The notes: generated by a model from the sequence alone, not told the origin. A stretch of 64,000 bases of DNA from Clostridia bacterium (GCA_017404545.1 JAFRCC010000022.1:86448-150447); one strand, 5' to 3'. Counted from the stretch's first letter, positions 51,114-61,340 are shown. Program-made: numbers and translations.

Positions 51114-51123
51114 AACTCTCCTT

Positions 51124-51207
51124 TAATTTTGGGGACGGAGCAAAAAATTTCACAAATTCCTCTATAATTTTGGAGACAGAGCAAAATATTTCACAAATCC
51201 CTCTATA
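51124..51207 (+). repeat. Two tandem ~41-bp units each containing the REP-like core TTTTGG(G/A)GAC(G/A)GAGCAAAA(A/T)ATTT, directly upstream of the pyrB RBS.
   Basis: Units 51124-51166 and 51165-51207 differ at five positions. Confidence 0.7.
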
Positions 51208-51935: not shown

Positions 51936-51953
51936 AATAAAATATCCTCCTTA

Positions 51954-52059
51954 AATTTTGGGGACGGAGCAAAAAATTAAAGTTACCATAATTTTTTGCT
52001 TTCCCCAAATAATCTATTTATATATTTTCTGAAGACTCAAATTTTTTGCTCCGTCCCCA
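51954..52059. repeat. Three REP-like copies in the pyrF-pyrE intercistronic region: forward 51954-51979, degenerate reverse 51989-52009, perfect reverse 52040-52059 abutting the pyrF stop codon.
   Basis: Core GGGGACGGAGCAAAAAATT and its reverse complement read directly. Confidence 0.75.
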
Positions 52060-54787: not shown

Positions 54788-54868
54788 ATTTTAGGGACGT
54801 ACTCATTTTTTTGAGTTTACTATCCCACTTTTATGGTTAACTTTATTTTTTTGCTCCGTCCCCAAAAA
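54788..54868. repeat. REP-like pair in the pyrC-pyrK junction: degenerate forward copy 54788-54815 upstream of the pyrK RBS, and reverse copy 54846-54868 lying inside the last six codons of pyrC.
   Basis: Reverse copy tttttttgctccgtcccc encodes G-D-G-A-K-K-stop of PyrC on the minus strand. Confidence 0.7.
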
Positions 54869-56117
54869 CTAACTTTCCATCGCAGAATGTCATTTTGCAT
54901 CTACCAAATACGTGGTTTCCGTCAAATGGAGTTGCTTTACCCATTGATACAAATGTAGATGAATCAATGTCATATTCTTCATTTAAATCATATACAGTCA
55001 TATCAGCAGGAGCTCCTACTTTTAATTCTGAACCAATTCCAAATATCTTTGTAGCATTTGAATTCATAAGCTCTAATAGTTTTTCTAAAGTAATTATTCC
55101 TGGTTTTACTAAGTTTGTATATAAAACTGGGAAACAAACCTCTAAACCAACAACTCCCATTGCGCTTCCAGCTAATCCTTTTGATTTTTCTTCAGCAGAA
55201 TGAGGAGCATGGTCTGTTATTATTAGATCAATTGTTCCATCTTTTATTCCTTCAATTAAAGCAAGTCTATCTTCTTCAGATCTTATTGGAGGATTCATTT
55301 TAAATCTTCCTTCTTCTTTAATTTGCATATCATTCATTGTTAAGTAGTGTGGACCAGTTTCGCAAGTAATTGGAACCCCTTCTTTTTTAGCTTGTCTAAT
55401 TAGTTCAACACTTTCCTTTGTAGATATGTGACATACATGATAGTGGCATCCAGTTTGTCTTGAAAGCTCTATATCTCTCTTGATTGGAACCCACTCACTT
55501 GCTGAGCAAATACCTTTGTGTCCATGTAATTTAGCATACTCCCCATCATGTATATATCCACCGTTTAAGAGAGAATTCTCTTCGCAATGAGCAACAACCA
55601 TTTTACCAAGTTCTTTTGCTTGTTTCATTGCCTCTAACATCATTCCTTCTTTTTGGACTCCATGTCCGTCGTCAGAAAAAGCAATAACTTTATCAGCTAT
55701 ACCTTTTAAGTCTGCTAGCTCTTCACCTTTTTCTCCGACTGTTATAGTTCCATATGGATAAACATGTATTTTAGCATCTTTTTCGATTGCATCAAGCTCT
55801 ATTTGTAAGTTTTCCATACAGTCTGGTGTTGGATTTAAGTTTGGCATTGCACAAATGCTTGTGTAACCACCTTTAGCACCTGCATAGCTACCAGTTGCAA
55901 TGGTCTCCTTATAAATAAAACCAGGTTCCCTTAGATGTGTATGAACATCAATTAAACCTGGTAATAAATACATATTATTCAAATCGTAAACTACATCGAA
56001 TCCGTTAGCTTCGATGTTTGCAGAAATATTAGTAATAACTCTATCAGTAATTTCTAAATCACTTTTAGTGAATTTTCCTTCTGTAAAAATCATAGCATTC
56101 TTTAATAATGTTTTCAT
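54843..56117 (-). CDS. pyrC: Dihydroorotase (start MKTLLKN).
   Basis: DVHTHLREPG metal-binding motif. Track ORF trimmed from 56174. Confidence 0.8.
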   Translation of the reverse strand: MKTLLKNAMIFTEGKFTKSDLEITDRVITNISANIEANGFDVVYDLNNMYLLPGLIDVHTHLREPGFIYKETIATGSYAGAKGGYTSICAMPNLNPTPDCMENLQIELDAIEKDAKIHVYPYGTITVGEKGEELADLKGIADKVIAFSDDGHGVQKEGMMLEAMKQAKELGKMVVAHCEENSLLNGGYIHDGEYAKLHGHKGICSASEWVPIKRDIELSRQTGCHYHVCHISTKESVELIRQAKKEGVPITCETGPHYLTMNDMQIKEEGRFKMNPPIRSEEDRLALIEGIKDGTIDLIITDHAPHSAEEKSKGLAGSAMGVVGLEVCFPVLYTNLVKPGIITLEKLLELMNSNATKIFGIGSELKVGAPADMTVYDLNEEYDIDSSTFVSMGKATPFDGNHVFGRCKMTFCDGKLVFGDGAKK

Positions 56118-58803: not shown

Positions 58804-58851
58804 GCCTTACGCCTCCTACGTTATATTACATCAAAGCTATTGTATATGTCA

Positions 58852-58882
58852 ATTAAATTTTGGGGACGGAGCAAAAAATTTA
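58852..58882 (+). repeat. REP-like copy (forward) flanking the downstream side of the RAYT gene.
   Basis: aattaaattttggggacggagcaaaaaattt. Confidence 0.7.
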
Positions 58883-58885
58883 AGT

Positions 58886-59650
58886 TTACATATTTTCTTC
58901 TGCAGCACGTACTACTTTCCAGTAACTAATATTTAACTTCTTTTGAATATCTTTTTTACATATAAATTCTGACTTTAGTAGCAATCTAATCAAGTCATTT
59001 CTCTTATCTTTTTCATTTAAAACTTCCTCTAAACTCATTTTTTTTGATTGGCAAAATTTCATTATATATTCTTCCATTACATAATCCTTGTCGTATTCAA
59101 CGTCAAGAAAATCATTACATACATCAACGGATTCAATTTGAGTGATATCTGTTTTTCCGAAAAAATGCTCTAAAAATGGTGATTCTCTTAAAAATATATT
59201 TCTTGAAAAATTATTATACGAGGAATACTCATAATCACTACATTTTTTTACTATTTTAGCTTTTACGGGATTTTTATGTATATAATTAATACACTGAAAT
59301 AAATATTTCTCATCATATATTGGTTGACTTTTAAATCTATCTCGAAATACAAAGCCTACTCTCTCCATTTTCCAGTTATAAAATTGAGCGAATTCTGTGT
59401 TTATGCATTTCATATATTTAGACATTTGCGCAATGCTTTCTGTATGTATTAATATATGTGTATGGTTAGACATAATACAATAACATATAATATCTAAATC
59501 CACATCATTGATATATTTTTTCATCAAAGCCAAATACTTTCTTTTTAACATATCATTTGCGAAAATCATTTCTTTGTTAATTCCTTGGCACATAACATGA
59601 AAAAAAGATGCATTTAACTCTTCTCTAGAGCGTCTTGACAAATTTTTCAT
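58886..59650 (-). CDS. REP-associated tyrosine transposase (RAYT; IS200/IS605-like HuH Y1 transposase) with a C-terminal extension.
   Basis: FHVMCQGINKEMIF, HuH motif SNHTHILIH and catalytic-Tyr motif YIHKNPV. Confidence 0.65.
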   Translation of the reverse strand: MKNLSRRSREELNASFFHVMCQGINKEMIFANDMLKRKYLALMKKYINDVDLDIICYCIMSNHTHILIHTESIAQMSKYMKCINTEFAQFYNWKMERVGFVFRDRFKSQPIYDEKYLFQCINYIHKNPVKAKIVKKCSDYEYSSYNNFSRNIFLRESPFLEHFFGKTDITQIESVDVCNDFLDVEYDKDYVMEEYIMKFCQSKKMSLEEVLNEKDKRNDLIRLLLKSEFICKKDIQKKLNISYWKVVRAAEENM

Positions 59651-59726
59651 CTCCTTTATTGATAATTTGCCCCCTAGTTTGCTGTTATATACACCTTTTC
59701 CCCTATTGTTTAATTATTGTAAACTT

Positions 59727-59748
59727 TAATTTTTTGCTCCGTCCCTAT
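59727..59748 (-). repeat. REP-like copy (reverse orientation) overlapping the metG stop codon and flanking the upstream side of the RAYT gene.
   Basis: taattttttgctccgtcccta. Minus RNA reads ...AUG CAA AAA UAG GGACGGAGCAAAAAAUU. Confidence 0.7.
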
Positions 59749-61340
59749 TTTTGCATCGAAGCTTTTATAAATTCAATTTCTTCGTCTCTGTCAAGTCTTA
59801 CAAATAATGGCTCTCCTTGAGTAATTACCTTTGTACCTTCCTTGATTACATTATCTACTTTGGCTAAATCCCATGCTTTGTTTTCTGTATCTATGCCAAG
59901 TTGTGATAACATTTTATCTGCTGTTTCTGGCATAAATGGTGCCAATAAGATAGCTACTTTTCTTAGATTTTCTGCTAAGTGGAACATTACAGATTTTAAT
60001 TTTTCTTTATCCGCTTCTTCCTCAGATTTAGCTAATGCCCATGGTGCTGTTTCGTCTATATATTTATTGGTTCTTGCAATAATAGCCCACAATTCAACTA
60101 GAGCATTGCTTACATGATATGTGTCCATTGCTTCCTCTACTTTAACAATTTGTTCCTTTGTAAATTGCTCTAAGCTATCATCAAATTCCGTTCTTGTTGC
60201 AAGGTCTTCTTTAGTTGGAATAACCCCTCCACAATATTTATTCATCATTCCTATTGTTCTATTTAATAAGTTACCTAAATCATTTGCTAAGTCTGAATTA
60301 AATCTATCAACAAAATCCTCTGGTGTAAACATGCTATCCTGTGCAAAACTCATCAGTCTTAATAAGTAATACTTTGTCGCATCTAAGCCATATCTTTTTA
60401 TTAATGTTTCTGGATATACTACGTTACCTACAGATTTAGACATTTTTCCATCTTTCATTACAACCCAGCTATGTGCATAAATTTGTTTTGGTAGCTCTAA
60501 TCCTAAAGCATGTAAGAATATTGGCCAATAAATTCCGTGGAATCTTATAATTTCTTTACCAACAACATGTAAATCAGCTGGCCAGTACTTGTTAAATAAT
60601 GTCTCATCGTCACCTTCATATCCAAGAGCTGTAATATAGTTTGTTAATGCATCTAACCACACATATAAAACGTGATCTGGATCATTTGGAAGTGGAATTC
60701 CCCAGTCAAATGTATTACGGCTTATGCATAAATCCTCTAATCCTGGATCTATAAAGTTTTTGAATATCTCATTCTTTCTCGATTCTGGTACAATAAACTC
60801 TGGATTCTTTGCATAAAATTCTCTTATCCATGGCTCATATTTTTTCATATTAAAGAAGTATGCATCCTCACTCATCTTTTTTACTTCTCTACCACAATCA
60901 GGACATTTTCCATCTACTAATTGTGTTTCTGTAAAATAGTTTTCACAAGGCATACAGTACCAATCTTCGTATTTTCCCTTGTATATATCTCCATTATCTA
61001 AAAACTTTTGAACAATTTTTTGAACTGCTTTGCAGTGATAATCGTCTGTAGTTCTAATAAATTTATCGTAACTTATATCCATCAATTTCCATAATTTTTT
61101 TGCGTCTTCTGCCATTTCATCAACATGCATTTGAGGAGACATGCCTCTTTTTTCCGCCACTGTTTGAATTTTTTGACCGTGTTCATCTAAACCAGTTAGC
61201 ATGAATGTGTCGTAACCTCTTGCTTGTTTGTACCTTTTGATAGCATTTGTAAGAACTTCACAATAAGCTGTACCTATATGAAACTTTCCACTTGGATAGT
61301 ATATAGGTGTTGTTATGTAAAACTTTTTGTTGTTTTCCAT
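59745..61340 (-). CDS. metG: Methionine--tRNA ligase (short form).
   Basis: HIGH motif PSGKFHIGTAY, KMSKS, CPDCG zinc knuckle. Confidence 0.85.
   Translation of the reverse strand: MENNKKFYITTPIYYPSGKFHIGTAYCEVLTNAIKRYKQARGYDTFMLTGLDEHGQKIQTVAEKRGMSPQMHVDEMAEDAKKLWKLMDISYDKFIRTTDDYHCKAVQKIVQKFLDNGDIYKGKYEDWYCMPCENYFTETQLVDGKCPDCGREVKKMSEDAYFFNMKKYEPWIREFYAKNPEFIVPESRKNEIFKNFIDPGLEDLCISRNTFDWGIPLPNDPDHVLYVWLDALTNYITALGYEGDDETLFNKYWPADLHVVGKEIIRFHGIYWPIFLHALGLELPKQIYAHSWVVMKDGKMSKSVGNVVYPETLIKRYGLDATKYYLLRLMSFAQDSMFTPEDFVDRFNSDLANDLGNLLNRTIGMMNKYCGGVIPTKEDLATRTEFDDSLEQFTKEQIVKVEEAMDTYHVSNALVELWAIIARTNKYIDETAPWALAKSEEEADKEKLKSVMFHLAENLRKVAILLAPFMPETADKMLSQLGIDTENKAWDLAKVDNVIKEGTKVITQGEPLFVRLDRDEEIEFIKASMQK

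Follow-up and report, generated by a model that had tools for sequence, protein, structure and literature searches.

A probable TIRtron-like locus after metG in uncultured gut Clostridia: a Y1 HUH transposase gene inside an inverted pair of hairpin repeats

The locus

We analysed a stretch of 64,000 nt from a Clostridia bacterium (GCA_017404545.1 JAFRCC010000022.1:86448-150447), called the window below and numbered from its first letter. At 58886..59641 on the minus strand it carries a gene for a Y1 HUH tyrosine transposase, enclosed by two inverted copies of a short repeat of the type named repetitive extragenic palindrome (REP) or terminal inverted repeat (TIR). The arms of this inverted repeat (58863-58890 and 59718-59745) are 28 nt long and 96% complementary. 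On one side the gene is bordered by metG (59745..61340) and on the other by a gene for a 191-aa P-loop protein, beyond which lie a pentapeptide-repeat protein gene and the pyrimidine operon pyrC-pyrK-pyrD-(99 aa)-pyrF-pyrE-pyrB. The locus contains the following features.

58886..59641, minus strand: Y1 HUH tyrosine transposase gene, TIRYT / REP-associated tyrosine transposase (RAYT) group 1 type by sequence comparison; 251 aa from a TTG start, 254 aa when the open reading frame is extended to the ATG at 59650
59210..59623, minus strand: catalytic Y1 HUH domain, residues ~10-147, with H63/H65, Y123, N127-P128 and the S143-S144 motif
58898..59089, minus strand: C-terminal helical DNA-binding domain, a DnaA-domain-IV-like helix-turn-helix (HTH), residues ~188-251
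58851..58885, plus strand: complete REP/TIR hairpin, abutting the gene's stop codon downstream and antisense to the gene (covariance model 50.2 bits, E 1.8e-9)
59718..59747, minus strand: truncated REP/TIR upstream of the gene, with loop core, 3' stem arm and GTTTACA tail, the 5' arm missing
59651..59717, minus strand: leader between the upstream REP and the start codon, with the motifs AGGGGAAA(A)G and GGGGGCAAAT, from alignment with relatives

A first-pass annotation had described a 254-aa protein bracketed by inverted REP copies. The open reading frame 58886..59650 does encode 254 aa, and a ribosome-binding site (RBS), AAGGAG, directly abuts its ATG. The database protein P0001, which is 251 aa long and 100% identical, starts three codons later at TTG 59641, and because P0001 and its homologs all begin with MSR or MPR there, this TTG is the likely start. 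The bracketing repeats likewise stand as an inverted pair, except that only the downstream copy folds cleanly (-4.9 kcal/mol, z -2.1, for the DNA fold of 58851..58885). In the upstream copy, which overlaps the metG stop codon, the metG coding end replaces the 5' arm and folding gave no hairpin.

The protein

The protein matches Pfam Y1_Tnp (PF01797) with 37 bits against a cutoff of 23. It scores 69.1 bits with NCBIfam REP_Tyr_transpos (NF047646), under the cutoff of 80, and 15.6 bits with the NCBIfam transpos_IS200 equivalog, whose cutoff is 55. Its HUH motif is H63-T-H65 in SNHTHILIH and its tyrosine motif is Y123-IHK-N127-P128 (YIHKNP). Columns H63, H65, Y123, N127, P128, R103, R105 and S143 are invariant in an alignment of 55 homologs with 32-57% identity. 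All 55 keep Y---NP, which is given as the class 2 signature (PMC6006769). These results agree with the earlier placement of the protein in the REP-associated branch of Y1 HUH proteins.

An AlphaFold (AF2) model of the protein (pLDDT 91.5, pTM 0.87) shows the HUH-Y1 fold. Its top Foldseek match in the PDB is 4ER8, E. coli TnpA_REP bound to a REP hairpin (E 1.2e-6, TM 0.68 on the target), followed by the TnpA proteins of IS608, ISDra2 and IS200 (E 2e-4 to 4e-3). A phmmer search with the window protein likewise matches 4ER8. Furthermore, dN/dS of the transposase gene is ~0.2-0.3, indicating that it is under purifying selection.

The homologs are all 245-255 aa long, which makes the last 100 residues a conserved feature of the family. 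This extension, first taken to be atypical, is the defining trait of a described group. Quentin et al. (2018, PMC6006769) divided the REP-associated Y1 proteins into subclasses, of which 2.1 is the second largest (14.9% of strains), has the longest proteins and is defined by a C-terminal HTH related to Bac_DnaA_C, HTH_23 or HTH_28. The window protein carries such an extension in its DnaA-domain-IV-like HTH, and single members of its family match Sigma70_r4, HTH_23 and HTH_28.

Subclass 2.1 equals RAYT group 1 (Bertels et al. 2017, PMC5581495) and probably also the TIRYTs (Di Nocera et al. 2013, PMC3733652), whose genes lie between terminal inverted repeats with the motif GGGGWSAS. Group 1 had already been recorded in Clostridia, with flanking 16-mers present ~12 times per replicon (PMC5581495), so the clostridial host is less of a novelty than the first-pass annotation supposed. 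We compared the window protein by blastp with TIRYT and RAYT sequences rebuilt from Additional file 5 of PMC3733652. Long TIRYTs matched with E values of 1e-30 to 1e-15 (tkm_1558 1e-30, hch_1378 3e-25, pca_3049 5e-25, sml_1152 7e-22), whereas REP-flanked RAYTs matched far more weakly (eco_b228 of E. coli 3e-6, pfs_3939 5e-9, sml_2816 of Stenotrophomonas 6e-5). By this comparison the window protein is a member of the TIRYT / RAYT group 1 / TnpA_REP subclass 2.1 family. It is an already known but little-studied kind of protein, and a new example from uncultured gut Clostridia. It shares with other members the great length for a Y1 HUH protein (~220-250 aa), the ...HV.QRGN......F signature near the N-terminus, three further motifs (C.M.NH.H, G..W..R.KS and Y....NPV......Y.(W/Y)SS) and an HTH extension at the C-terminus akin to DnaA domain IV. 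Its C-terminal domain cannot, however, be aligned with that of the 2013 proteobacterial TIRYTs, to which blastp alignments end at about residue 165.

A repeat hairpin with a near-invariant loop

The repeat unit measures ~35 nt and forms a stem-loop. Its AT-rich stem of 10-11 bp has a genome-specific sequence, and its 13-nt loop, G-GGGACGGAG-CAA, is almost invariant; a perfect stem-loop from other genomes is GTGATGATTTT-G-GGGACGGAG-CAA-AAAATCATCAC. From genome to genome the stem reads GATGATTTT, GATGTTTTT, AGCTGTTTTT, AACTGTTTT, GGTGTTTTT, GAAATTTT or TTAAATTTT while the loop remains constant, and the A-run is always two longer than the T-run. Folded as single-stranded DNA, copies from other genomes form stems of 10-11 bp with z of -3 to -7.7. 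Stems in the window are weak (TTAAATTTT/AAAATTTAA), and clean folding is confined to the copy just after the gene's stop codon.

In an alignment of 87 distinct units, pairing holds in 89% of the cells of the hairpin model, and 7 of its 11 pairs vary on both sides. The covariation score is 0.394; shuffled alignments give 0.132 (0 of 500 reached the observed score) and slid controls 0.04-0.11. The rule used to select units partly fixes pair 8-30, and copies within one genome are not independent events, whereas the many stem sequences of different genomes are. No REP-like secondary structures adjoining subclass 2.1 genes were seen by Quentin et al. (PMC6006769), whereas the TIR here is demonstrably a stem-loop, its conserved motif lying in the loop and its stems covarying. 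A search for an analogue of the GTAG tag found no conserved tetranucleotide outside the hairpin and no GTAG at either hairpin foot. The only tail after the 3' arm is a clade-specific GTT(T/A)AC in the window genome and its closest relatives.

With at most 3 mismatches allowed, the core GGGACGGAGCAAAAAATT is matched 7 times in the 64 kb, compared with 0.06 expected, and none of 100 shuffles reached 7. A covariance model made from copies of other genomes finds 4 full hairpin units in the window, all with E <= 5e-7: 58851-58885 (+), 51949-51983 (+), 54840-54874 (-) and 51120-51154 (+). It also gives loop-only matches at 52045-52059 (-) and 59733-59747 (-), and nothing convincing between 1 and 51 kb. 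The repeat thus recurs in the intergenic regions of the pyr operon, as had been noticed from the sequence at first pass. Besides the pair around the transposase gene, the window holds these copies.

51120..51195, plus strand: tandem pair of REP copies (period 41 nt) immediately before the pyrB RBS, the second copy being degenerate; absent from the related genome L007
51949..52059, no single strand: REP doublet between pyrF and pyrE; its full copy lies at 51949-51983 (+), 51992-52006 holds a degenerate inverted copy, and 52040-52059 (-) a loop-only one that abuts the pyrF stop codon
54786..54874, no single strand: REP doublet between pyrC and pyrK, consisting of a full copy at 54840-54874 (-) and a degenerate partner, GGGACGTACTC, at 54794-54804 (+); absent from L007

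An Rfam search of 50-60.5 kb (E <= 10) returned no known family, with matches of the doublet only at the level of chance miRNA/snoRNA hits.

The repeat accompanies the gene and varies with it

The GGGAC-G-loop hairpin flanks the homologous gene in 10 of the 10 loci examined (window/L001, L005, L007, L010, L047, L065, L130, L131, L133 and L135), sense upstream and antisense downstream, with proteins of down to 38% identity. The first-pass annotation named two findings that would speak against its reading, clustering of the protein with IS200 TnpA and absence of the repeats from other genomes; we saw neither. Moreover, the variant that flanks the gene is the variant dispersed in the same genome: GATGATTTT in CASFHP, AGCTGTTTTT in CALXFC, the loop GGTTCC in L130 and the loop GGAGCA in L131. 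The last two loci have MetRS (methionyl-tRNA synthetase) sequences that are 97% identical, together with transposase alleles that are 51% identical and the different loops GGTTCC and GGAGCA.

At orthologous intergenic sites, one relative may have a whole doublet that another lacks. This holds for pyrC-pyrK and pyrE-pyrB between the window and L007 and for pyrC-pyrK and pyrD-pyrF between L133 and L007. Likewise, a 170-nt doublet of L130 is absent from L131.

We scanned one genome per species (GTDB) for the 17-mer GGGACGGAGCAAAAAAW and obtained at least 119 stretches, so that copy numbers per genome are lower bounds. About 35 of the stretches among the matches listed are single chance matches in unrelated, mostly higher-GC genomes. 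In at least 25 low-GC (25-32%) metagenome-assembled genomes (MAGs) labelled Clostridium, Eubacteriales, Clostridia or Bacillota, the core is dispersed on many contigs; among the matches listed, the fetched pieces of single MAGs hold up to 13 copies on up to 7 contigs. Across 156 cores in all fetched clostridial stretches, neighbours closer than 200 nt form 40 pairs in +/- orientation, 0 in -/+ and 3 in tandem. The doublets have a modal start-to-start spacing of ~74-83 nt (range 38-149 nt between core starts). Their spacers are unconserved, differing in sequence and length among doublets of one genome, and many units are singlets. The transposase gene itself occupies the 'spacer' of a +/- repeat pair.

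Several side observations concern these copies. The core also occurs in two Bacteroidaceae MAGs (GC 0.46-0.49; L076 and L091 of CAZLVK, L062 of CAZRHE) among the matches listed, as tight inverted pairs of the 17-nt core with GC-rich stems such as GGGCGATTTGGGGACGGAGCAAAAAATCGCCC; the loop motif is therefore common to different phyla. Direct tandem arrays are seen in L083 and L116 (CALXUX), with a 25-nt period (TGCCAAAGGGGACGGAGCAAAAAAT), and at 51120-51195 of the window with its 41-nt period. Beside a gene that looks intact, the upstream repeat of L047 (5330-5400, CASFHP) retains its stem (ATGATGATTTT...AAAAGTCATCAT) but no longer has the conserved loop.

The gene keeps its site but is hypervariable

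In six relatives the gene lies directly after metG. Among these, MetRS is 82-97% identical and the pyr enzymes are ~89-95% identical, whereas the transposases are 45-57% identical in every pair regardless of relatedness. In a comparison with L007, nucleotide similarity to the window is lost at the core of the upstream repeat and returns at the start codon of the next gene. The closest pair, L130 and L131, has dN 0.018 and dS 0.36 for MetRS, and dN 0.40 and dS 1.35 for the transposase. The transposase alleles look older than the species split, which suggests that the cassette was exchanged, or that a polymorphism has persisted for long, more than that the gene evolved fast where it is. As the source of the ~50% divergence, allele replacement seems to us likelier than fast evolution in situ, since in this one informative pair synonymous divergence, too, is ~4-fold above that of the adjacent metG.

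L130 (2267-5060) and L131 (6923-9865) carry extra genes, for proteins of 472-478 aa and others without a Pfam match, between the transposase gene and the 191-aa protein gene. The site after metG thus looks like a spot of gene-content variation as well.

Interpretation

We propose, with a probability of about three in four, that this is a TIRtron-like locus, that is, a single-copy, chromosomally fixed transposase of TIRYT / group 1 / subclass 2.1 type inside an inverted pair of its cognate repeat. P0001 occurs on 7 contigs from different samples, with identical context in 7 of 7; the homolog P0112 has one context, dnaB-gene-tilS, in 6 of 6 places, and a further homolog is located after spoIIE. 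No second copy or near-identical paralog of the gene was found in the 64 kb or in any fetched DNA stretch, and no TnpB gene near it among the open reading frames of the window and of the P0001 contigs. As in TIRtrons, the gene has a low copy number and is flanked by terminal inverted repeats with a GGGG(A/T)(C/G)A(C/G)-like motif (here GGGGACGG), which belong to moderately abundant dispersed TIR families, often as dimers. Unlike published TIRYTs, it has a repeat that departs from the consensus motif at position 7, resides in uncultured gut Clostridia and is a hypervariable gene fixed after metG.

By homology with TnpA_REP and IS608 TnpA, the protein would bind the repeat hairpin and its conserved loop on single-stranded DNA, and would cleave and rejoin DNA at the hairpin through Y123 and an HUH-bound metal. 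Because the loop is the only invariant sequence, we think that the recognition site, and possibly the nick site, lies within it, by analogy with the origins of Rep proteins. Singlet and inverted-doublet copies in intergenic DNA would thereby be spread, deleted or homogenised while the gene itself stays in place, no longer acting as a multicopy insertion sequence. As for the DnaA-like HTH, it might recognise the duplex form of the conserved core (GGGGACGGAGCAAAAAA) or hold the protein at the replication fork, as speculated by Quentin et al. (PMC6006769).

Several points weigh against the proposal. The TIR motif GGGGACGG agrees with the published GGGGWSAS at 7 of 8 positions, with G for A at position 7 (one degenerate copy reads GGAGACAG). 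Copy number is modest: the 6-7 copies in the window lie no farther than 9 kb from the gene, the other 51 kb are devoid of them, and in L005 and L010 the flanking pair stands alone in 20 kb. Several copies in the window lack the 5' arm and do not fold. Excision of the cassette from one strand, in the manner of IS608, is not straightforward, because the flanking copies are inverted and each strand has the sense loop on one of them only. Finally, the literature searched holds no biochemical evidence for any subclass 2.1 / TIRYT protein.

The protein could instead be a domesticated, non-transposing DNA-binding protein, its hairpins being host cis-elements (mRNA stabilisers, attenuators, promoter UP-like or fork-associated sites) that are regulated or processed in place. 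Its fixed positions by housekeeping genes (after metG in six relatives, between dnaB and tilS, after spoIIE), its DnaA-domain-IV-like HTH and the purifying selection at dN/dS ~0.2-0.3 are in keeping with such a role, as are the conserved leader upstream of the gene and the location of repeats exactly at stop codons or just before an RBS or a -35 box. A regulator of this sort would however hardly account for catalytic HUH and tyrosine residues that are invariant in all 55 homologs. Moreover, a copying or spreading process is called for both by the whole doublets that one close relative has and another lacks and by repeat variants that are homogenised inside each genome yet differ where MetRS is 97% identical. 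We consider domestication unlikely. A canonical RAYT/REPIN system, as in E. coli and Pseudomonas (groups 2/3, subclasses 2.2/2.5), would consist of a short RAYT that mobilises GTAG-tagged REPs as REPIN doublets with a conserved spacer. There are points of resemblance: E. coli TnpA_REP/RayT (YafM, 4ER8), the best structural match, shares the HUH-Y1 fold and is encoded by a single-copy gene between inverted hairpin repeats, its presumed targets, and the E. coli REP/BIME (bacterial interspersed mosaic element) repeats are intergenic too, often just after stop codons. REPINs (Bertels & Rainey 2011, PMC3116915), served by a single-copy RAYT, are also inverted unit pairs forming a larger palindromic doublet of strictly fixed orientation, as are the +/- doublets here. 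In contrast, E. coli TnpA_REP has 165 aa and ~17-22% identity to the window protein and lacks the additional HTH domain of ~100 aa; the REP_Tyr_transpos score stays under its cutoff (69.1 against 80), and the E. coli RAYT matches at E 3e-6 when TIRYTs reach 1e-30. E. coli REPs are GC-rich palindromes in hundreds of copies, with a conserved 5' GTAG tag outside the hairpin, whereas the clostridial hairpins have no GTAG at their foot, keep their conserved bases in the loop, form doublets with unrelated spacers of varying length (38-149 nt between core starts) and are often singlets. A canonical system is accordingly quite improbable, and that label, given at first pass, is not supported; the idea behind it was largely correct and needs more precise filing.

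An ordinary autonomous insertion sequence of the IS200/IS605 family with TnpA only, the flanking repeats being its ends, is the remaining alternative, and one to which we give very little credence. It would fit the Pfam Y1_Tnp match and the matched IS608 and ISDra2 TnpA structures, with which the protein shares the HUH-Y1 catalytic fold and, as the expected mode of action, recognition of hairpins on single-stranded DNA. IS200/IS605 TnpA proteins are however class 1, ~130-150 aa long, multicopy and often accompanied by TnpB, whereas here Y---NP indicates class 2, the IS200 equivalog scores 15.6 bits against 55, TnpB is lacking nearby, and each genome has one locus, with no near-identical paralogs in the 64 kb or the fetched stretches. 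Furthermore, IS200/IS605 elements carry same-sense subterminal hairpins at both ends, with cleavage sites outside the hairpins; the ends here are inverted copies of one hairpin.

Beyond the TIRtron-like locus, we tentatively entertain a wider picture, which we would put well short of even odds. A REPIN-like system in gut Clostridia, and apparently in some Bacteroidaceae, might be run by group 1 RAYTs with a DnaA-type HTH. Recognition and cleavage would take place in the 13-nt loop, as at rolling-circle Rep origins, and not at the hairpin foot, as in IS608 and E. coli REPs. The cassette after metG would be exchangeable and hypervariable, and upon a change of allele the dispersed hairpins would be rewritten to the matching loop variant.

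In the literature we found, no substrate is defined for subclass 2.1 / TIRYT proteins and none has been tested biochemically. What our analysis adds to that literature is a hairpin made explicit, with covarying stems around an invariant loop, the occurrence of this hairpin in many Clostridia MAGs, and the hypervariable cassette after metG. In this clade the 35-nt hairpin, the constant companion of the gene, makes a clean candidate substrate, and there are natural allele pairs (L130, L131) in which protein and loop variant change together. Experiments on binding and cleavage, and tests of protein-repeat co-evolution, can therefore be designed directly. REP-like elements also shape intergenic regions in uncultured gut Clostridia, and one of them alters the C-terminus of a dihydroorotase.

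Sequence context of the copies and other observations

The window has a GC content of 29.7%. GC skew of the plus strand is uniformly and strongly negative (-0.13 to -0.36), with no switch between 1 and 64000. The leading strand is therefore the minus strand, on which every gene between 50 and 64 kb is located, and the whole window lies on one replichore.

The leader motifs AGGGGAAA(A)G...GGGGGCAAAT are G-rich and conserved in L005, L007, L130, L131, L133 and L065, whose proteins are only ~50% identical. The leader may be an autoregulatory site or a structured leader. Its second motif, GGGGGCAAAT, resembles the 3' half of the repeat loop (GGAGCAAAA).

Sense copies (GGGGACGG..., in the orientation of the gene) lie at or directly after the stop codons of metG, pyrF and pyrC. 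The copy at 54840-54874 (-) encodes the 3' end of pyrC, namely its last six codons and stop (GDGAKK*); the pyrC product ends in ...VYKD* in L007 and in ...VFEE* in L133. Antisense copies lie directly before an RBS (pyrB, pyrE, pyrK) or the TTGACA -35 box of the 191-aa protein gene. This -35 box directly follows the antisense downstream repeat (CCCCAAAATTTAATTGACA, window 58840-58862 (+)), and the same juxtaposition recurs in L007 (10800-10830), L133 (~6810-6850) and L131 (~6790). Other antisense copies run straight into AAGGAGG ribosome-binding sites. The repeat may thus contribute to the context of promoters or RBSs. Insertion-target footprints are ambiguous, as the repeat ends (AAAATTTAAG) merge into RBS-like sequence and the alignments are ambiguous.

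A second subfamily of the repeat has GGGACGG followed by ACTCAT... (GGGACGGACTCATTTTTT) in place of AGCAAAAAA. It is found in L007 (16516-16554 and 4479), L133 (10707) and the window (54794-54804), and occupies orthologous pyr intergenic sites in several relatives. These units may be older copies or the substrate of another allele. In L130 (5071-5217), the spacer of the 170-nt doublet holds a hairpin followed by a T-run that resembles an intrinsic terminator (GAGCTA...TAGCTCTTTTTTT).

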